The notes: generated from the letters alone by a model not told the origin. Positions 15,629 to 25,119 are shown, counted from the first letter of the stretch. The stretch is DNA of 64,000 nucleotides from Gemmatimonadota bacterium (GCA_039588295.1 JBDHAB010000011.1:13676-77675), one strand, 5' to 3'. Made by a program: numbers and translations.

Positions 15629-16882
15629 TCAACCCCGAGGACGCACCGGCTGCGTCCATGCCACCTCCGTCTCACCCGCGCGATAGGGGTTCACCTTCGG
15701 TCGCGACGACGCAACTTTGGCACGCACGTAGAGTTCATCGCCTGCGAACTCATAGGTCGCCGACGTGCCCTCGACCTCCGCCAGTACTTCACCGATCGCG
15801 TCACTGTAGCGGTATCGAACGGATGCCCTGCGGCCCGGCTCGGCGATCCGCTCTGCCGGAGGATAGCCCCTTCGGGTTCCGATGAATTGGATCGTGTAGG
15901 TCACACCCTCCTCAGCATCGACTACGAGGGAGACATCCTCCTCATTCACCGTGACCTCGTCCAACTCCACGCCCGTCGAGCTGTAGAAATCGCCTCGTTC
16001 CAGCGCGGCAACCAGCGAATCCGCCTGCAGCGCTGACGTGCGCACCACGACCCATCCTCGTCCCGGATTGCTGTGCTCCGAATCCAACGCTCGATAATGA
16101 TGAGCGTCATCGACCGCCACCCCGTACATCAACTCTCGCCCCGCGGTCAACCGCTCCGCGAGAATGATGTCCCAGAGGCGTTCGGCGCTCGGGTGCAGCG
16201 CATCTCCTTCGTTACGCACCGCCGGATGACCGTTGTATACCTCGAAGAACTTCTCCCGCTCTAACCAGATGAGATCCTCTGCCGTCATCGCCCACCCGTA
16301 GTTCGGGTGGTTGATGTGCGGGAACATCGCCTGCCCCAATCGTTGACGCTGTTCCAGCACCGCGTCCACATTGTTCTGCATGACCTCCAGAACACTGCCC
16401 CCACCCAGCGGCTCGATCAGTTCTGCGAGATTCGTGGCGTTGACATGGATCGGCTTTGACTCAAACCGATCGCTGATTTCCTCACTCTGTAGCACGAGGA
16501 ACTGACTCGGTTCTTCGAAGAGGACGCGATACTCGCTCAAGGTCTTGAGGCGCACCGATCGACGACCCTGCTCTTCCCTTTGCTCTACCCATTCACCACC
16601 GAAGCGGACAACATAGGCTTCGAGGTTCGTCAATCCTCCCGAGCGCTCCGATACCTCCACCCACTTCTCGCCGGCCGCCAGCACATTGTGATCAGACAGC
16701 GCGATGAAGGCATAGCCGTGCCGCTTGTACCAGTCGACCACCATTTCGGGGTAGTCGTCTCCATCACTCCACAGGGAATGTGTGTGAAGATTGCCCTTCC
16801 ACCACTGGGGCGCCGCTGCGCCGTCGCACGAGATACCGACCCAAGCAACGACGGCGAGAACCGCGCGACGCCATGTGATCAA
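15629..16882 (-). CDS. PHP-domain metallohydrolase lipoprotein (CehA/McbA-like)
   Basis: KGNLHTHS, SDG, SDHN, NHP, EVYNG, DDAH; lipobox GISC. Confidence 0.8.
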   Translation of the reverse strand: MITWRRAVLAVVAWVGISCDGAAAPQWWKGNLHTHSLWSDGDDYPEMVVDWYKRHGYAFIALSDHNVLAAGEKWVEVSERSGGLTNLEAYVVRFGGEWVEQREEQGRRSVRLKTLSEYRVLFEEPSQFLVLQSEEISDRFESKPIHVNATNLAELIEPLGGGSVLEVMQNNVDAVLEQRQRLGQAMFPHINHPNYGWAMTAEDLIWLEREKFFEVYNGHPAVRNEGDALHPSAERLWDIILAERLTAGRELMYGVAVDDAHHYRALDSEHSNPGRGWVVVRTSALQADSLVAALERGDFYSSTGVELDEVTVNEEDVSLVVDAEEGVTYTIQFIGTRRGYPPAERIAEPGRRASVRYRYSDAIGEVLAEVEGTSATYEFAGDELYVRAKVASSRPKVNPYRAGETEVAWTQPVRPRG

Positions 16883-17547
16883 GGCAGCTCCGTTACATAG
16901 ATGTTCCTGAAGTACACGGGACTCCGGTCATCGTGGTTCTGCAATCCGATGTAGCCGCGTTGTGCAAAATCCTCCACCTTGCCGCGCGGCTCCGCCAGCC
17001 AATCGGTCACCTGTTTGCCGTTCAGCTCGACCGCGATGCGATTCCCCCTGAAGGTGATCCTGAACTGGTTCCATTCGCCGGGCTGGTTGGAAGCGGACTC
17101 ACTGGGCGCTTCGGCATCGTACACCCCCGCGGTGTGGTGAATGCCCTCCCCCGCATCGTAGATCTGGACTTCGAAGCTGTGATAGATGTAGTCGTTACTC
17201 GTCGGTACGTCCGGCACGCGCAGAAACACTCCGGAGTTCGTGTGCTCATCCGCACACTTGTACTCGAGTTCGAGCACGAAGTCTCCGTACGGTTTGACGG
17301 TGTACCAGAGCAGACCCATGCCACCGTGCGACGTGAGAACGCCCGTCTCCGGATCCAACTCGAAATAGCCCGGACCATAGTGGTTCCAGCCATGTTTCGA
17401 GTACCTCCCGTTGCGCGACTGCAAGATCTGCTCGCGCTCGGACTGCATACCGGCTGCCGCCAGTGCTGTATCTTGCCCCTCACTGTTGGAGTATCCCCCG
17501 ACGAGGATCACCCCAGCAACACAACTGCAGATCGTGAGCCGTCTCAT
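16879..17547 (-). CDS. DUF1080 family 3-keto-glycoside hydrolase/hydratase, secreted
   Basis: YGDFVLELEY, NSGVF, EVQI, GEWN, GYIGLQNH, FRNI. Confidence 0.88.
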   Translation of the reverse strand: MRRLTICSCVAGVILVGGYSNSEGQDTALAAAGMQSEREQILQSRNGRYSKHGWNHYGPGYFELDPETGVLTSHGGMGLLWYTVKPYGDFVLELEYKCADEHTNSGVFLRVPDVPTSNDYIYHSFEVQIYDAGEGIHHTAGVYDAEAPSESASNQPGEWNQFRITFRGNRIAVELNGKQVTDWLAEPRGKVEDFAQRGYIGLQNHDDRSPVYFRNIYVTELP

Positions 17548-17585
17548 GAGTTCTCTCCACACTTCAGGTGATCGGTGGCGGTGAT

Positions 17586-18833
17586 TCACCGGCCTGGATT
17601 CCACTCCCCCCTCGCCACGGCCGGTACGAATGACCCCAGATCGGGCGGCGGGAACGCGATGGTCCGCCCTTGCTCGGCACTCATGTAGGCGGTCATGAGC
17701 AACTCCGTCACATTAAGACCGTCGCTGAAGTTCTCTTTCGGACGCGTGCCGGCCAAAAATGACTGCACCATGTGTCGGTTCTCACCCACGTAACCATACT
17801 CCGATTCCTCGTCACTCACGACCGGCATGAGCCCCATTTCCGCATTCTGCTTCTCCACGAGATCTTCCCCCGCCTCACCCGTCACCTGCCGGCTGAAGAA
17901 GACCTTCGGGCCGGCATCGAGCGTATTCACGGCGAGGGAGTACTCCGGCCCGAGCAATTCCATGGTGTGCCGCAGGCCAGCGCCCACGTAGCACCAGGAG
18001 GTGGTCGTTTCCACGATGCGCGCATTGCCGTGGGCATCGCGATACTCCACGAGCGCCCGGGCAAAATCCTCCGACGGCCGGTTCCGGTAGTCCGTCGAGC
18101 CGCCGCTCTGTGCCGCCAGCTGGTCCGCATAGTGGGGCTGCTGCCATTTCAGGCACGACGTATGCGCAGTGACCTTGACCGGTGTCAGGACGTCCCGCGA
18201 AGCGCCCGGAGGAGTGAGCAGGAAACGGGCGACCTCGACCGAGTGGCACATCATGTCGTTGAGCACGCCGCCACCCTGGAGCGACCCCTCCCAGAACCAC
18301 GGCATATGTGGGCCGCTGTGTTCCTCCGTCGCGCGGGCCAGGAAGGGTGCGCCGGTGAGGGCCGCCCCCCGGGACCAAAGGATCGCCTTGCCCCGCACCA
18401 CTGCGGGGGCGAACAGCTGATTCTCGAGGTAGCCGTCGAGCAGTCCGGCCCGCTCGACCAGTTCGAGCATCTGTCGCGCCTCCGCCGCATTCCGTCCGAG
18501 CGGCTTCTCGCACGCCACGCCGAGCAGCTCACCCTTCCCACTCTCGACGGCGTGCACGATCTCCTCCGTCACCTCGATCCGTGTGAAGTTCGGCGAACAG
18601 ATCCAGATGGCGTCCACCGCCGGGTCCGCAACCATCTCGCTGATGGACCTGAACGGCCTCGCATCGCCCACCCCGAGGGTGCACGCGAGGGCCGCAGCCT
18701 CCTCGGCCGTCCCGCTGCGCCCGACGACGCCACGGACGTCGCCGTCCCGCACGCCGACGAACGAGCGAATGTGGAACCGGGCCACGAACCCGCCACCCAC
18801 GAACCCTACGCCCAGTCGCTTCTTGCGCGCCAT
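17586..18833 (-). CDS. Gfo/Idh/MocA family oxidoreductase
   Basis: VGFVGGGFVA Rossmann motif, CEKP, GGGVLNDMMCH. Confidence 0.9.
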   Translation of the reverse strand: MARKKRLGVGFVGGGFVARFHIRSFVGVRDGDVRGVVGRSGTAEEAAALACTLGVGDARPFRSISEMVADPAVDAIWICSPNFTRIEVTEEIVHAVESGKGELLGVACEKPLGRNAAEARQMLELVERAGLLDGYLENQLFAPAVVRGKAILWSRGAALTGAPFLARATEEHSGPHMPWFWEGSLQGGGVLNDMMCHSVEVARFLLTPPGASRDVLTPVKVTAHTSCLKWQQPHYADQLAAQSGGSTDYRNRPSEDFARALVEYRDAHGNARIVETTTSWCYVGAGLRHTMELLGPEYSLAVNTLDAGPKVFFSRQVTGEAGEDLVEKQNAEMGLMPVVSDEESEYGYVGENRHMVQSFLAGTRPKENFSDGLNVTELLMTAYMSAEQGRTIAFPPPDLGSFVPAVARGEWNPGR

Positions 18834-18938
18834 GCCCGCAGCCACCTTTCGTGCGATGGGAGTCCTGGCCTTCGTACCCACGTCCCTACGCCTCCGCCCG
18901 CGCTTCCGGCCCCTCTTCCCCCCTGAAGAGCACCAACC

Positions 18939-20189
18939 CTACGTGGCCTCGTCGTCCGCCGCTTTGGCCCTGAGCTGATCGACCCGGTCGTAGAAGAGCA
19001 GGGCAAAGCCCACCATGACGACGGCCGCAAACGCCGCCGGGACGAGCCAGAATTGTCGCCACTGGCCGAGCGTCAGCGCGTCCGCATCGCCCAGGAAGGC
19101 GTTGAAGAGGTTGCCCGCCGCCTGAGCGCCGATCAGCATTCCAAGCCCGTAGGTGACCAGCACCAGCATCCCCTGCGCCTGGCCGCGAATCGCGGGCGTC
19201 GACTTCTTGTCGACGTAAATCTGGCCGGTGACGAAGAAGAAATCGTAGCAGATTCCGTGCAGCATGATGCCTACGATGATCATCCAGAAGACCTCGCTTG
19301 GCGCCGCGAGGGCGAAGAACACGTAGCGCAGAGCCCACGCCCCCATGCCGGCAACGAGCATCCACTTCACGCCAAGGCGGACAAAGAACACCGGCATCAG
19401 GAGCATGAAGATCACCTCGGACATCTGCCCGAGCGTCTGCGTACCGGCGATGTTCTGGAACCCCGTTGCCTCAAGAAAGAGCTGCGTGAAGTTGTAGTAC
19501 GCCGCGAGCGGGATCGAGATGAGCAGCGAGGCGCCGAGGAACACGTAAAACGGTCTGCTGCCCAGTTCCTTCAGCGCGTCGAGTCCGAGGATACTGCGGG
19601 GTGAGACCTTCTCTCCCACAGCCGGAGGCGGCGTGTGTGGCAACGAGAAGGCGTACAGACCCAAAACGACACTCGTCGCCGCCGCCGTGTAGAGTGGCAG
19701 CGGCGTCTGCTCGGGCAGACTCCCGCCCGCCACGAACAGTCTGAGCACCAAGCTGACAAAAAGACCGGCAACGATCCAGCCGATCGTGCCGAACACCCGG
19801 ATGAGCGGAAAGTGCTTTTCCTGGTCGGCGATGTTGTGAAACGCGAGCGAGTTCGCCAAGCCAAGGGTTGGCATGAAGCAGAGGTTGTAGAGCAGAAGCA
19901 GCAGCACGAACACCGCCGGTGCGCCGCTGAATTGCGGGACGGTCAACAACACCAGGCCGCCGAGGATGTGTAACACCCCCAGCACCTTCTCAGTCGAGAA
20001 GTAGCGATCGGCCACCAGCCCCAGAAAGAACGGCGCCACGATAGCCGCGATGGGATTGACTGTGAAGGGCCAGTGCGTCAGGTCGCCCATGCCCTCAGCC
20101 GTCATGTACACGGCGATAGACGTGTACCACGCCCCCCAGACGAAGAACTGGAGGAACATCATGATCCCGAGGCGGGTCTTGGTGCTCAC
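18939..20189 (-). CDS. MFS nucleoside:H+ symporter family (NupG/YegT-like)
   Basis: FLQFFVWGAW, ADRYFSTEK, IRVFGTIGW, GQMSE, LHGICYDFF. Confidence 0.9.
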   Translation of the reverse strand: MSTKTRLGIMMFLQFFVWGAWYTSIAVYMTAEGMGDLTHWPFTVNPIAAIVAPFFLGLVADRYFSTEKVLGVLHILGGLVLLTVPQFSGAPAVFVLLLLLYNLCFMPTLGLANSLAFHNIADQEKHFPLIRVFGTIGWIVAGLFVSLVLRLFVAGGSLPEQTPLPLYTAAATSVVLGLYAFSLPHTPPPAVGEKVSPRSILGLDALKELGSRPFYVFLGASLLISIPLAAYYNFTQLFLEATGFQNIAGTQTLGQMSEVIFMLLMPVFFVRLGVKWMLVAGMGAWALRYVFFALAAPSEVFWMIIVGIMLHGICYDFFFVTGQIYVDKKSTPAIRGQAQGMLVLVTYGLGMLIGAQAAGNLFNAFLGDADALTLGQWRQFWLVPAAFAAVVMVGFALLFYDRVDQLRAKAADDEAT

Positions 20190-20284: not shown

Positions 20285-21877
20285 CTACACGATCGTCCGA
20301 CGTACCGGGTCCCACTCCACCTTGCGACCTTCCTGGAAGGACCTGGTCGCCATGTGGCACGTAATCGCCTCCTCGAACGCCCGCTCGATGTTACAGCTCG
20401 TCACGCCACCGTTGCGGATGACGTCGAGCCACTCCGCGATGAGGAGGTGGTACGCCGATACCCTTCGCCCACCGCGGTAAGTGTACAACAGCCCCCGGCT
20501 TGCGAAATACTCCGCCGTCGCCGACGTGACGGCGTCGATTCCCTTGAAACCGGGTCGATACGTAAACATCGGCCGGGACGGGTCGATGATCTTGTCCTCG
20601 ATCTTCTTCTCGTACCGCGTGGACTCACCATCCGCCGTGACGGACAGACTTCCGCTCACCTTCATGGACGCGTCATGTCCCATGAACGTGAGGCCGCGGT
20701 AATTCCCGTTCGCGAGCGTGGCGCTGTAGACAAATGTGAGATCGCGATCGGGGTATTCGTACACGGCCTGGAACACGTCGGGCACGTCGCGACCGTCCTT
20801 GAAGTAGTAGATCCCCCCGGACGCTGTCGCCGATTTGGGAATCCCCAACTGCAGGATCTGGTTGACGCCGTCGTACTCGTGAGACAGCAGATCGCCGGAC
20901 AGTCCCGTCCCGTAGTCAAACCAGCAACGCCAGCGGAAGAAGCGCTCGAGATTGAAGGGCACCCGGTTGGGCGCCGGTCCCTGGAACAAGTCCCAGTCGA
21001 TCGTCTCGGGACTACCCTCCTCGTGGATATCCCAGACCCACGCCCCCCACGGCGTGTTCCGGTTGGTCGTGCCTTCGACCAATGTGATGGGACCAAGGAT
21101 GCCGGCGTCGATGACCTCGCGAGCCTTGTTGTGTGCCTCCGACTGGCGGTTCTGGTGTCCGAGCTGGAACACGATGTCCGAATTCGTCACGGCGTCGTAT
21201 GCGGCGTGGGCCTCCTCTTCGGTCCGCGTCATACATTTCTCGCAGTAGACATGGATGCCCTCGGCTGCCGCGTCAGCGGTCATCCGGGAGTGCCAGTGAT
21301 CGGGTGTCGCGATGATCACCGCGTCCACGTCGCCGCTCTGCAGCAGGTCTTGGTAGTGGCGATACCGCTTCGCGGCAGGAAACGGACCCCCAGCACCAGG
21401 TCGAATCTCCACCTGGGACGCTGCGATCGCCCGTTCCGCACGCACGTCGAACACATCGCACACCGCGGTGAACTGGACGTTCAGGTCCTGCTGGTCCAGG
21501 TACACCTCGAGCGCCTTGTGGCGCGGATCGTCTGCGACGTTCTGACGCTGTTCCTCGATCCAGTCGGGGTGCGCAAACCCGGCGTGCCGGACGAGCGCCT
21601 CACCTTCCCCGCCATACCCAATGATCCCGAGGCGAACGCGTTCGCCCGGTGGCCTTGAGATCGCATCCGGAATAACGGCGGGGCCGGTTTCACTCACACC
21701 GAGCTCGGACAGGATCTCTCGCTTCTTGAGATCGTCCGCCGCCTTCTTCTTGAAGAAACTGTAGAAGAAGGCTCCAAAGACGGGGATCGACACCAACAGC
21801 TCGAGAAACCCGCGCCGGCCGATACCGCCGCTGACCTCGCGACCCTCGACGCTCCGATTCTTAGTCTCGTCACTCAT
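20285..21877 (-). CDS. Tat/membrane-anchored Gfo/Idh/MocA oxidoreductase with a flavinylation-like motif
   Basis: GRRGFL followed by a hydrophobic helix; IIGYGGEG, ATPDHWH, YCEK, RWRCWFDYGTG; DAVTSAT near the C-terminus. Confidence 0.88.
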   Translation of the reverse strand: MSDETKNRSVEGREVSGGIGRRGFLELLVSIPVFGAFFYSFFKKKAADDLKKREILSELGVSETGPAVIPDAISRPPGERVRLGIIGYGGEGEALVRHAGFAHPDWIEEQRQNVADDPRHKALEVYLDQQDLNVQFTAVCDVFDVRAERAIAASQVEIRPGAGGPFPAAKRYRHYQDLLQSGDVDAVIIATPDHWHSRMTADAAAEGIHVYCEKCMTRTEEEAHAAYDAVTNSDIVFQLGHQNRQSEAHNKAREVIDAGILGPITLVEGTTNRNTPWGAWVWDIHEEGSPETIDWDLFQGPAPNRVPFNLERFFRWRCWFDYGTGLSGDLLSHEYDGVNQILQLGIPKSATASGGIYYFKDGRDVPDVFQAVYEYPDRDLTFVYSATLANGNYRGLTFMGHDASMKVSGSLSVTADGESTRYEKKIEDKIIDPSRPMFTYRPGFKGIDAVTSATAEYFASRGLLYTYRGGRRVSAYHLLIAEWLDVIRNGGVTSCNIERAFEEAITCHMATRSFQEGRKVEWDPVRRTIV

Positions 21878-21891
21878 CGTTTTCGCTCCCC

Positions 21892-22410
21892 TCAGGCGTG
21901 AGCCTGCTTCAGGGACGTGTTCGAAGGGCTGCGCCACAGGGCAATCAACCGGTCGACTCCAAAGACCTTCCCGGTCGGAAACGCGAGCAGAGCGACCAGC
22001 GCCGCCAGCTCGATCATGATCTTGTTGACGATCAGATAGCTCCCTTCCGCAGGCATAGCGTACTCATAGCCGACAAACGGTGGAGCGGCGATGTAATAGA
22101 GAACCAGCAGCGCCATGCCAGCAACCGTAGCGACGCGCGTCAACGCTCCCAGCATGAGCCCCAGTCCAATGAGGATGAGCCCCCAGATGTTGACGTAGTC
22201 CACCACGGTCAGGAGCGACGGATTCGCGGCCACGCCGAGGAACAGATCTTTGAGCCACCATTGGGACTCCGCGAGATAGCCGGCCGACGTCCAGTACTCG
22301 TTCGTGAGCTTGGCGAGACCCTCGTAGAAGAAATGCCAACCGATGAGGATCCGCAGTGTGACCAGGCCAATTGCCTGGAAGCGGGTGTACTGCCCTGATT
22401 CATGCATCAT
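21892..22410 (-). CDS. DoxX family membrane protein
   Basis: LRILIGWHFFYEGLAK, four TM helices, IVNK, FGVD. Confidence 0.85.
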   Translation of the reverse strand: MMHESGQYTRFQAIGLVTLRILIGWHFFYEGLAKLTNEYWTSAGYLAESQWWLKDLFLGVAANPSLLTVVDYVNIWGLILIGLGLMLGALTRVATVAGMALLVLYYIAAPPFVGYEYAMPAEGSYLIVNKIMIELAALVALLAFPTGKVFGVDRLIALWRSPSNTSLKQAHA

Positions 22411-23450
22411 GCCTCCGCCTCTTCTCCGTTGACGCAGGGCGCACTCCGCCAGCCCCCTGTCCTCCGCTGCGTTCCATCCCTCTCAATGAGCAGACATTCA
22501 CAGCCGGGCAGCGCATCGACGAACGCGATCCCGGCCTTTGGCTCCATCACGAACAACCCAGTCGCCAGTGCGTCAGCGGCCATCGTCGTTGGGGCAACCA
22601 CCGACGCACTTCTGGTGAGGTGGGGAGAGACTCCCGATGTCGAGTTGACAATGTGGTGGAACCGCTCGTCGCGGTCGAAGTAAATCTCGTAGCTGCCCGA
22701 CGTTGCCACCGCCCCGCCGCTAGGATGGATCGTGTCGGGAAACCTGCCGGCCTTTTCGGGGTCTTGCACCGCGACGGTCCACGGGAGCTTCCGCTCCTTG
22801 GTCCCAGCCGCACGGATGTCACCACCCGCATCGATCAAATAGCGTCCGATTCGGTGTCGCTCGAGTTCCCGTGCCATGCAGTCGACGATGTAGCCTTTGG
22901 CGATCCCGTCCAAGGTGACCCGCATACCGGACCTGCGGAACCGGATCTGTCGCTGCGACACCTCGAGATGCTCGATCCCTACGAGTTCCAGCGCCTCCCG
23001 GACTTCGCCTCGCTCCGGCGTCGTGCCGTCGAGCCGGTCCCGGAACAGGTCGATCACGGGTGCGACCGAGATATCGAAGGTCCCGCGTGTCACCTCGTGG
23101 AACTGTTGAGATCGCGAGATGACGTGGGCGAGCTCGGGTGGTGCGCTGTCCAGCCGACCCGCGTGGTTGAGCTGACTCAGCGCCGAGCCGCTCTCGTACC
23201 GACTAAACACGGCGATCAGCCGGTCCATCTCCTCGAGCGCCCGTCCAATAGCCTCCTCCGCCCGCTGCTGCGACCGTGCCAGCGCCGAGACCGACACCAG
23301 GGTGCCCATGGCCAGCTTCGTCCTGGTGACTTTGTGCGTCTTTCGGTCGATACGGAGGGCTTGGGTGGTGACGGGGACACAATCGACGCGCTCGAGGCCC
23401 AGCTGCCGGAGGGCAGACAGCTTTCGGGCAATTCGAGCGGCCTCGTGCAT
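22407..23450 (-). CDS. apbE: FAD:protein FMN transferase
   Basis: AMGT, FDIS, LDGIAKG, DAGGD, ATSGSY, HHI, ADALAT; no N-terminal signal peptide visible. Confidence 0.9.
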   Translation of the reverse strand: MHEAARIARKLSALRQLGLERVDCVPVTTQALRIDRKTHKVTRTKLAMGTLVSVSALARSQQRAEEAIGRALEEMDRLIAVFSRYESGSALSQLNHAGRLDSAPPELAHVISRSQQFHEVTRGTFDISVAPVIDLFRDRLDGTTPERGEVREALELVGIEHLEVSQRQIRFRRSGMRVTLDGIAKGYIVDCMARELERHRIGRYLIDAGGDIRAAGTKERKLPWTVAVQDPEKAGRFPDTIHPSGGAVATSGSYEIYFDRDERFHHIVNSTSGVSPHLTRSASVVAPTTMAADALATGLFVMEPKAGIAFVDALPGCECLLIERDGTQRRTGGWRSAPCVNGEEAEA

Positions 23451-23491: not shown

Positions 23492-24487
23492 TCAGCCGGT
23501 GGCCAGGGACAGCCAGTTTCGCTGGATTTCGTCCGCCGGCTTACCGATACCCGCGGCCCGATACTCCTCGTCTAGTCGAGTGCGCGCCCGCTCGAGCAGC
23601 GCCAGCGTTGCGCGGATTCCGTCGGGTTCGCTCAGCTGGCTTCCCTCGTACTCGATGCCCACGTAGCCGCGGTACCCGGCATCGAGCACGATCCGAAGCA
23701 TGCGCAAGTAGTCAGTCCGTGTCTCGTTCCCGTGTTCGTCGAACTCGTTCGCCTTGGCACTGACCGCCTTGGCGAACGGCATCAGCTGCGCTACGCCGTC
23801 GTAGCGATCGTACCACTCGCCCTCTCGAATACGGAAGTTGCCGAAATCCGGCAGCGTTCCGCAGCCGGGATGACCCACGGCACGCATCACGCTCGCCAGC
23901 CACGCGCCGTTCGACGACAGGCCTCCGTGGTTCTCCACGATGACGTTGATTCCCCGATCGGTGGCGAACTCGGTGAGTCGCCGAAGGCCATCGGCGGCCA
24001 GCTCCCGCTGTTCCTCCGGTGAGCCCTGCGATTGGGCATTGACGCGAATCGAGTGACAGCCGAGGTGCGTCGCAGCATCGACCCAACGGTGGTGATTCTC
24101 GACCGCCTTCGTGCGTGCGGTGTCGTCAGGATCGCCAATCGCGCCCTCGCCGTCGCACATGATGAGAAGGCTCCGAACACCATGGTCTGCTGCTCTCTGC
24201 CTCAGCTCGTTCAGATAGCCCAGATCCTCCGCCTTGTCCTTGAAAAACGAGTTGACGTACTCGACGGCATCCAGTCCATAGTCCATTCGGGCGGTCGCCG
24301 GGAAATCGAGGTTGTCCAGGTCGCCGGCGTACAAGGTGCGGTGGAGCGACCACTCCGCTAACGAGATTTGAAAGAGAGGGGCGGATGGCCGCACGCGTGA
24401 GAGACGCGAGGGCGAGGCACACGCTGCCGCCGGAAGCGCGGCAAGCGCGGATTTGACGAACACGCGGCGGCTGATGGAGTGTAGCAT
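23492..24487 (-). CDS. Sugar phosphate isomerase/epimerase (xylose-isomerase-like TIM barrel), Tat lipoprotein
   Basis: [39 protein letters not shown]. Confidence 0.88.
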
Positions 24488-24678
24488 GGTTCTCCGACGG
24501 CTGACGTTGGTCTAAGATATGAAGCCCGACACAAGCAGGCCAGATGCGGACGGTTTCGCCCGTCGCTCACATCCTTGCCACCATGGACCCCGGGCGTACC
24601 TTGTACGAGCACACCAATCCCCAGGTGTCCCGCCAACTTCGCTGTCGGTCTTTCCACCGAGCCCTGCGGGGGGGTCGC

Positions 24679-25119
24679 ATGCCTGAGCTCTCGATGGTCT
24701 CCCGAGTGAGTCTCTATGTGCTGGTAGCCTCGATCGGTATCCTTGCCCTCATCATCTGGTCGGTCCAGGTTGGTGTGCTCAACGGCAGGGCATTCAAGAA
24801 CCCAGATGGATCGGTGGACGATTGGCACGAGCAGAAGCTGTTCTACGGGATCTCCTTCGCGGACGTGTTCGTTGCGTGTCCGGCCAGCGTTGCTGGGATC
24901 ATCCTGGTACTTGTGGCTCCGCGGTGGGGATGCTACGTGCTGGCTCTCGTGAGCTTCTGGCTCGTCTGGACAAACATCATGACCACTGCGAGCAGTCTTC
25001 GCTTCGAACAGCCACGGATCACCCTCATGTGGTTCATCGTGTTCCCTCTCGGGGCGCTCGTGGGCCTCGCCTACATTGCGTGGACCATCGTGCACTTCGA
25101 CATCATCTACTCATTGTGA
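24679..25119 (+). CDS. Hypothetical membrane protein (about 4 TM helices)
   Basis: Hydrophobic helices separated by a polar NPDGSVDDWHEQ loop. Confidence 0.7.
   Translation: MPELSMVSRVSLYVLVASIGILALIIWSVQVGVLNGRAFKNPDGSVDDWHEQKLFYGISFADVFVACPASVAGIILVLVAPRWGCYVLALVSFWLVWTNIMTTASSLRFEQPRITLMWFIVFPLGALVGLAYIAWTIVHFDIIYSL

Follow-up and report, generated by a model that had tools for sequence, protein, structure and literature searches.

A candidate flavinylated Gfo/Idh/MocA dehydrogenase encoded with DoxX and ApbE in a Gemmatimonadota bacterium

Gene organization of the locus

The window analyzed here is a stretch of 64,000 nucleotides from a Gemmatimonadota bacterium (GCA_039588295.1, JBDHAB010000011.1:13676-77675; positions are counted from its first letter). 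At 20285-23450 it carries genes for an ApbE-family flavin mononucleotide (FMN) transferase, a DoxX-family membrane protein and a nicotinamide adenine dinucleotide (NAD)-type dehydrogenase of the Gfo/Idh/MocA family. The original prediction, made from this DNA alone, was that ApbE attaches FMN to the dehydrogenase and that the flavin wires the enzyme to DoxX and quinone. The contiguity that it reported was confirmed: the three genes follow one another on the minus strand, within a tight minus-strand run of eight genes (Pfam and gene calls; reading frames in this GC-rich DNA were filtered by third-position GC). The ApbE stop and the DoxX start overlap by 4 bases, and the dehydrogenase ATG (21877) lies 14 bases past the DoxX stop. 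The genes and the features within the dehydrogenase, with lengths in amino acids (aa), are:

22407..23450, minus strand: ApbE-family flavin adenine dinucleotide (FAD):protein FMN transferase, 347 aa (PF02424, E 1.5e-70)
21892..22410, minus strand: DoxX-family small membrane protein, 172 aa, about four hydrophobic helices (PF07681, 31.2 bits, cut-off 23.6; hydropathy)
20285..21877, minus strand: Gfo/Idh/MocA NAD-type dehydrogenase, 530 aa (PF01408, PF22725, PF02894 and PF19051, all above cut-offs)
21752..21817, minus strand: twin-arginine motif RRGFLE and sole hydrophobic segment, a predicted uncleaved twin-arginine translocation (Tat) signal anchor (sequence, hydropathy)
20459..20548, minus strand: clade-specific loop that comes after the last sheet strands and before the C-terminal helices, with a predicted local distance difference test score (pLDDT) below 50 (AlphaFold2)
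20516..20536, minus strand: D-A-V-T-S-A-T flavinylation-like motif, with the predicted FMN-bearing Thr at codon 20516-20518 (sequence)

The dehydrogenase combines an N-terminal NAD-binding Rossmann domain with a C-terminal alpha/beta domain (Pfam, Foldseek). Its AlphaFold2 model (mean pLDDT 75, predicted template modeling score 0.76) was assigned by Foldseek to the Gfo/Idh/MocA fold, with at least 500 PDB matches and a best E of 3.6e-18. The longest frame starts with a GTG at 21937; the ATG at 21877 yields 530 aa, which is the length of an identical database protein. Residue numbers in the structure and alignments, for which a start at 21880 was used, are one higher than in the 530-aa protein. 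An alignment of 32 orthologs shows no variation in D330, H334 or the E-K pair at the catalytic site, and at least 90% conservation of the Cys next to the pair; this E-K-C occupies the E-K-P site of the family. The best NCBIfam match is the equivalog model NF058561, the BT_2158_fam glycoside 3-dehydrogenase (127.4 bits, against a cut-off of 750), and the best PDB sequence matches are 8tdh and 8tdf (E 1.1e-26). These alignments span residues 165-379 only and, ending at about residue 379, do not reach the motif loop. By these scores the dehydrogenase is a relative, not an equivalog, of the BT_2158_fam glycoside 3-dehydrogenases.

The N-terminus of the dehydrogenase, GIGRRGFLELLVSIPVFGAFFYSFFKKK, holds the only hydrophobic 19-residue window of the protein. 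As originally noted, this RR-FL anchor has the form of a Tat signal: R-R-G-F-L-E precedes the hydrophobic stretch, both twin Arg residues are invariant in the 32 orthologs, and the genome encodes TatC (E 2.6e-65). No Ala-x-Ala signal-peptidase site is visible in the N-terminal sequence, and the segment is predicted to be an uncleaved Tat signal anchor. Localization calls here and below are from motifs, hydropathy and the positive-inside rule.

A flavinylation-like motif in a clade-specific loop

ApbE enzymes modify the last residue of the motif D-x-x-[S/T]-G-A-[S/T] (PMC12052999). The reverse complement of 20516-20536, GAC GCC GTC ACG TCG GCG ACG, encodes D-A-V-T-S-A-T exactly where it had been reported, and this sequence fits six of the seven consensus positions, the departure being the Ser at the usual Gly position that had been pointed out at the outset. 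For one model protein, a Gly-to-Ala change in the motif kept ~50% of flavinylation and an Asp-to-Ala change had a minor effect (PMC12052999). Among 20,000 composition-preserving shuffles of the dehydrogenase, the pattern D..[ST][GS]A[ST] appeared in 0.54% and the 4-mer [ST][GS]A[ST] in 8%; of the eight operon proteins, only the dehydrogenase contains the 7-mer. The loop that bears the motif comprises residues 445-474. Burial of the motif had been named as grounds for doubting the prediction; in the AlphaFold2 model the loop has pLDDT below 50 and contributes no packed core element, its geometry being unmodelled.

We assessed conservation in an ortholog set consisting of the window and 80 loci of 59-84% identity, drawn from species-representative genomes. 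The 80 loci belong to Gemmatimonadota, Aminicenantes and Neomarinimicrobiota, together with a few metagenome-assembled genomes carrying other labels; related genomes among them are non-independent samples. The pattern [DN]-x-[VIL]-T-[ST]-[AP]-[TS] is kept in 81/81 sequences, with Thr as the last residue in 78 and Ser in 3, and the motif is also kept in 120/120 of the database homologs listed. The variants are DAVTSAT (36/81), DTVTSAT (13/81), DAVTTPT (12/81), DAITSAT (7/81), DAVTTAT (3/81), DAVTSAS, NAVTTAT and DGITSAT (2/81 each), and DVVTSAS, DTVTTAT, DTITSAT and DALTSAT (1/81 each). Within the 32-ortholog alignment the first motif Thr never varies, and conservation is at least 90% at the Asp, the Ala and the last Thr.

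Gene order is conserved as well. DoxX lies directly upstream of the dehydrogenase in 74 of the 75 loci with at least 520 bases of upstream sequence. At the 75th (L056:5044-7548) DoxX and dehydrogenase share one frame, with a small insertion relative to L046; we considered a natural fusion and rejected it, the merged frame being most likely an assembly indel. Where at least 1.7 kilobases (kb) of upstream sequence was available (60 loci), ApbE is found within ~2 kb in 54, as an adjacent same-strand gene in 46/60 and in divergent orientation in 8/60 (seven, plus one partial gene at a contig edge).

The ApbE and DoxX proteins

The window ApbE is a full-length match, covering positions 1-265 of the 266 in the PF02424 profile; against the NCBIfam ApbE model it scores 122.7 bits (cut-off 498). 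It has no signal peptide or membrane segment, as no 19-residue hydropathy window reaches 1.6, and so does not show the N-terminal signal of the typical periplasmic lipoprotein form. Cytosolic ApbEs exist (PMC12052999), and the window protein resembles that type; having no signal peptide, it would work on the dehydrogenase in the cytoplasm, ahead of export by Tat. Its same-strand orthologs share a non-hydrophobic N-terminus with no signal. In the signal-less ApbEs (the window and the same-strand cases in L001-L080), the ApbE fold is also preceded by a conserved extra stretch of ~45 N-terminal residues, R-I-A-R-K-L-x-A-L-x-x-L-G-F-E-R-V.

The divergent ApbEs have lipoprotein-type signals and are only 74-99 bits similar to the same-strand type. 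Since two non-orthologous ApbE types stand beside the DoxX-dehydrogenase pair, apbE was recruited twice. Two Aminicenantes-type loci illustrate the divergent arrangement: at L036:3400-5059 the lipoprotein ApbE is accompanied by a NusG_II-domain protein, and at L040:4128-5090 it directly abuts the pair.

The window DoxX is a small multi-helix membrane protein that scores above the PF07681 cut-off, and its conserved loops would lie on the outer face of the membrane by the positive-inside rule. As described in PMC10084136, a membrane hydroxyhydroquinone dehydrogenase has a DoxX/D-family protein for its small subunit, DoxD reduces quinone, and one DoxX protein also sequesters a regulator.

We considered two other operon proteins as clients of the ApbE and rejected both. 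DoxX has a conserved Y-W-T-S-A-G without a terminal Ser/Thr, and S-S-A-S occurs in a few of its orthologs only. The PHP-like protein encoded by the last gene of the run contains E-G-T-S-A-T, but its gene found no match in any of the 80 related loci; on this comparison the hexapeptide is probably due to chance.

ApbE genes and their partners elsewhere in the genome

The genome has three ApbE genes, of which one is RNF-linked and two each stand beside a Tat-signal Gfo/Idh/MocA enzyme. The window lies on contig C11 and, in agreement with the earlier finding, holds no FMN-binding-domain gene (no PF04205 match at E up to 0.01); the single PF04205 match of the genome is on contig C24. There, C24:14000-19409 encodes an RNF-type cluster of RnfC, D, G, E and A-like proteins and, directly after it, a membrane-anchored ApbE. 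The RnfG-like protein, which is that sole FMN_bind match, carries a canonical D-M-I-T-G-A-T. PF03116 (NqrB/RnfD-type) has one strong match, in the C24 cluster, and two weak ones on C36; DUF2271 (PF10029) has no match in the genome. Because the known clients have their own ApbE on C24, the operon ApbE is an orphan with respect to known clients.

The third ApbE gene encodes a protein with a signal peptide and is followed directly by another Tat-signal Gfo/Idh/MocA enzyme, in the region C120:461-2814 (L081, L094). This enzyme is only 94 bits similar to the window dehydrogenase and reads G-V-H-T-S-A-T in the equivalent loop; in its AlphaFold2 model the motif segment (residues 317-346) again has pLDDT below 50 and comes after the last sheet strands, ahead of the C-terminal helices. 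Among the 14 Gfo/Idh/MocA-like frames of the genome (~13 genes), [ST][GS]A[ST] occurs only in the two ApbE-adjacent enzymes and in none of the 12 other paralogous frames. Downstream of the C120 enzyme is a gene start with a DUF1080-like N-terminus and no Pfam match.

When 121 C120-type sequences (60-93% identity, the query among them) were aligned, 120/121 had T or S at the end of the motif. The residue before the Ala varies among Ser, Thr and Gly, with the canonical T-G-A-[TS] in 9/121, so that Gly and Ser are interchangeable there within one family. Two same-genus C120-type orthologs have both an adjacent ApbE and the motif; in seven homologs of 34-37% identity the motif is missing, as is any ApbE within 1.5 kb. 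No DoxX was found in the 14.6-kb neighborhood of this family that was examined. In the same-genus locus L105 the run continues with another Gfo/Idh/MocA gene, a TIM barrel, a GHMP kinase and a nucleotidyl transferase, again with no DoxX.

Sister clade and distant relatives

A survey of 121 genomes of the phylum Gemmatimonadota separated three groups of relatives. Orthologs of at least 66% identity occur in 9/121 genomes, the window's own included. A sister clade (L106-L114; 45-51% identity), occurring in one family and often with two tandem dehydrogenase copies, has DoxX directly upstream, a TIM-barrel gene nearby and a loop reading G-K-G-[IV]-E-A-[IVL]-T-[SA]-A-T. Homologs of 31-42% identity (10 loci) have neither DoxX nor ApbE nearby, and the loop is absent in the 5/5 that were aligned. 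Across the loci examined, enzymes with DoxX or an adjacent ApbE have the loop and motif, and enzymes with neither partner have neither feature.

The remaining genes of the operon

The other five genes of the run are:

23492..24487, minus strand: xylose-isomerase-like TIM-barrel protein bearing a Tat-type signal, whose gene opens the operon (PF01261, E 2.1e-27)
18939..20189, minus strand: MFS transporter of the nucleoside:H+ symporter family, predicted to import a pathway product (PF03825, E 1.2e-100)
17586..18881, minus strand: second Gfo/Idh/MocA oxidoreductase, without signal, predicted cytoplasmic (PF01408, PF22725)
16879..17604, minus strand: member of the DUF1080 (3-keto-disaccharide hydrolase) family whose N-terminus resembles a signal (PF06439, E 1.6e-37)
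15629..16882, minus strand: PHP-like protein bearing a signal peptide, whose gene closes the run (weak PF02811, 19.7 bits, below the cut-off of 26.4)

Synteny in related loci extends to the downstream MFS transporter, the second Gfo/Idh/MocA gene and the DUF1080 gene, and in many of them the TIM-barrel gene lies upstream of ApbE. The DUF1080 hydrolase, TIM barrel and second Gfo/Idh/MocA oxidoreductase are thus co-located with the dehydrogenase, and by their family assignments these proteins, with the MFS carrier, fit the 3-keto-glycoside type of pathway.

A candidate flavin link between the dehydrogenase and DoxX

The best explanation of these patterns, and one that we rate slightly above even, is that ApbE flavinylates the last Thr of D-A-V-T-S-A-T and that the FMN carries electrons from NAD(H) to DoxX and the quinone pool. 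Judged from sequence comparison, the dehydrogenase is probably flavinylated on the loop Thr; the full path from covalent FMN through DoxX to quinone is only just on the likely side.

In the proposed mechanism, the dehydrogenase would fold in the cytoplasm with tightly bound NAD, and the signal-less ApbE would attach FMN to the loop Thr there; in relatives with a lipoprotein ApbE, attachment would follow export. Tat would then export the folded, doubly loaded protein, and the uncleaved signal anchor would hold it beside DoxX. On oxidation of a glycoside at C3, the FMN on its flexible loop would take the hydride from NADH and, at DoxX, pass the electrons on to quinone. Cleavage of the 3-keto-glycoside would fall to the TIM-barrel and DUF1080 enzymes in the periplasm; the MFS carrier would import a product, which the cytoplasmic second oxidoreductase would reduce.

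The original prediction of a flavinylated dehydrogenase wired to DoxX gained comparative support from the motif in 81/81 sequences, the loop, the neighboring apbE and the paralogs; neither of the findings named in advance as refuting it, a buried motif or one uncorrelated with apbE, was encountered. Two points amend it: DoxX is a stricter companion of the motif loop than apbE is, and the signal-less window ApbE would act before export, which the prediction had not foreseen. The joint distribution of loop, DoxX and apbE is as expected for a flavin loop that links the enzyme to DoxX, with the transferase possibly encoded in trans; it is also as expected for a loop that merely docks DoxX. We favor the flavin because two non-orthologous apbE types were recruited beside the pair, because the DoxX-less second family shows the link between ApbE and motif by itself, including the canonical T-G-A-T, because the last motif position admits only Thr or Ser, and because no other operon protein bears a conserved motif.

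Several observations weigh against flavinylation, and one alternative is a loop without flavin, serving as a DoxX-docking, quinone or substrate-site element. Under this alternative, which we consider unlikely, the likeness to the motif would be fortuitous, and ApbE would serve another client or act in flavin trafficking or FAD hydrolysis for the pathway. The loop tracks DoxX perfectly in the cases examined, being present in all DoxX-linked enzymes and missing from the aligned outgroup homologs that lack DoxX, whereas the link to a neighboring apbE depends on the clade. An apbE gene neighbors the pair in the 54/60 ortholog loci described above, whereas in the sister clade 9/9 DoxX-bearing loci keep the loop although the 7 kb around them hold no ApbE. 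Among the orthologs, ApbE was not found upstream in 6/60 loci. Ten genomes without a nearby apbE were checked, and apbE was found elsewhere in 5/5 of the ortholog genomes and 5/5 of the sister-clade genomes (1-3 copies each overall, 2-3 in the sister clade); this is a weak test, as ApbE is also present in 8/14 control genomes. Four sister-clade genomes (L130, L131, L133 and L135) have a signal-less ApbE that divergently adjoins yet another Tat-Gfo/Idh/MocA enzyme, and this third ApbE-adjacent type lacks a strict motif and has a conserved D-Y-L-R-P-x-x-A-P-[TS]-H-G-D-D. Conservation extends over ~40 residues around the motif and so does not single out the Thr, and because the loop is unmodelled by AlphaFold2 a flavin pocket cannot be assessed. 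The case for flavinylation is wholly comparative, and for a Gfo/Idh/MocA fold we are aware of no earlier case in which bound NADH passes its hydride to a tethered FMN. The motif itself is off consensus, with Ser or Thr replacing the Gly throughout the orthologs and Pro replacing the Ala in 12/81, and in the sister clade with Glu for Asp and Ala for Gly; the literature consulted (PMC12052999 and others) contains no test of whether flavinylation tolerates these variants. A loop without flavin nevertheless leaves the recruitment of two non-orthologous ApbE types unexplained, as well as the DoxX-less C120 enzyme with T-S-A-T beside an orphan ApbE and its relatives with T-G-A-T. Also against it, no other operon protein has a conserved motif, the Y-W-T-S-A-G of DoxX lacking the terminal Ser/Thr, and the known clients of the genome have their own ApbE.

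If the dehydrogenase is flavinylated, its electrons could still go elsewhere, to another periplasmic acceptor, or the flavin could take the place of free NAD turnover in a sugar-to-sugar ping-pong, with DoxX acting only as an anchor, regulator or carrier. The second ApbE-linked family, with no DoxX in its neighborhood, indicates that a flavin on a Gfo/Idh/MocA fold need not imply DoxX, and DoxX proteins are poorly characterized, one of them also sequestering a regulator (PMC10084136). Such a role is nonetheless somewhat less likely again than a loop without flavin, given the translational closeness of DoxX and the dehydrogenase, with a gap of 11 bases, the retention of the pair in 74/75 loci and in the sister clade, the conserved DoxX loops on the predicted outer face, and the one characterized DoxX/D-family enzyme that reduces quinone (PMC10084136). 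The N-terminal segment could alternatively do no more than anchor the protein in the membrane, leaving the catalytic domain in the cytoplasm, where the signal-less ApbE would modify an enzyme that oxidizes imported sugar. The absence of a signal peptide from the window ApbE and of a visible signal-peptidase site from the dehydrogenase, the five Lys/Arg residues before and five after the hydrophobic segment, and the MFS importer gene next door would all suit this topology. We consider it improbable, because the invariant Arg pair stands in the RR-x-F-L context typical of Tat signals, the TIM-barrel and DUF1080 partners carry export signals, relatives in other phyla pair the enzyme with exported lipoprotein-type ApbEs, and Tat-exported relatives with bound cofactor have been described (PMC8121099).

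Extending the flavin link beyond this locus is more tentative: it is possible, though we place it a little below even, that Tat-exported Gfo/Idh/MocA sugar dehydrogenases form a class of their own, with covalent FMN on a dedicated flexible loop as a wire from NAD through FMN to quinone and DoxX, with the ApbE cytoplasmic or periplasmic by lineage and a motif of the form [DE]-x-x-T-[GSTA]-[AP]-[TS].

Relation to known systems

The known ApbE clients are NqrB/RnfD and the FMN_bind domains of NqrC/RnfG, with DUF2271 and DUF3570 added from orphan apbE neighborhoods (eLife 2021, PMC8238504). Like these, the window dehydrogenase has a Ser/Thr motif that ends in the candidate modified residue, a cognate apbE in its cluster (two genes upstream) and a proposed electron-transfer role across or outside the membrane. 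It differs from them in that the candidate carrier is a loop of an NAD-type Rossmann dehydrogenase with no FMN_bind, DUF2271 or DUF3570 Pfam match, in the Ser for Gly in the motif and in the signal-less ApbE. DoxX and Gfo do not appear in the main texts of the flavinylation surveys PMC8238504 and PMC11334425; PF01408, PF07681, GFO_IDH_MocA and DoxX are likewise absent from three small supplementary files of PMC8238504, the large cluster tables being outside that search. A full-text literature search found no publication that joins ApbE or DoxX with the Gfo/Idh/MocA family, consistent with the earlier statement that the route was not known to have been described for it.

Among the closest described systems are the BT2158-type glycoside 3-dehydrogenases (PMC8121099; PDB 8tdh, 8tdf and 8tdi). 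As in the BT2156-BT2159 cluster described there, a Tat-signal Gfo/Idh/MocA enzyme is clustered with a DUF1080 protein, a TIM barrel and a second Gfo/Idh/MocA enzyme; the 3-keto-disaccharide hydrolase function of DUF1080 was shown for BT2157 (PMC8121099). The electron acceptor of the Tat-exported BT2158 was not identified, and its authors propose a second sugar (PMC8121099). Unlike that type, the present cluster adds ApbE and DoxX, and its dehydrogenase scores 127 bits against a cut-off of 750, with the motif loop outside the alignment.

Further comparisons can be drawn with enzymes of related fold or function. In the glucose-fructose oxidoreductase of Zymomonas, the cofactor is recycled by fructose reduction, with no known flavin or membrane partner and a cleaved signal. 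This enzyme is exported by Tat with a tightly bound nicotinamide cofactor (PMC8121099), as is proposed for the window dehydrogenase, and belongs to the same fold family. DoxD of thiosulfate:quinone oxidoreductase and BtdS of the hydroxyhydroquinone dehydrogenase BtdLS are, as DoxX is proposed to be here, small four-helix membrane partners of a larger dehydrogenase subunit in quinone chemistry; their substrates differ, and no ApbE or flavin is reported for them in PMC10084136. The cytochrome-c-linked FAD glucoside 3-dehydrogenases LacABC and ThuAB (cited in PMC8121099) likewise oxidize glycosides at C3 in the periplasm and deliver electrons to the respiratory chain; their folds and cofactors are unrelated, and they use cytochrome c where DoxX and quinone are proposed here.

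Many bacteria export Gfo/Idh/MocA dehydrogenases with a locked-in nicotinamide, and how this cofactor is re-oxidized without free NAD is a standing question that a covalent flavin leading to DoxX would answer directly. If the flavin link is real, ApbE clients would gain a new protein fold and a wider accepted motif, the poorly understood DoxX family would have a concrete job, and periplasmic sugar oxidation could conserve energy in abundant soil and sediment phyla, allowing respiration on glycosides. On the comparative evidence the exported dehydrogenase is likely flavin-tagged and would pass electrons from sugars into respiration, a route of which we found no published description.

Other observations at the locus

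The TIM-barrel protein (23492-24487) matches PDB 4ovx, an entry without assigned function, at E 1.1e-118. Upstream of the operon, and divergent from it, 24544-25119 on the plus strand encodes a hydrophobic protein of 191 aa with no Pfam match.

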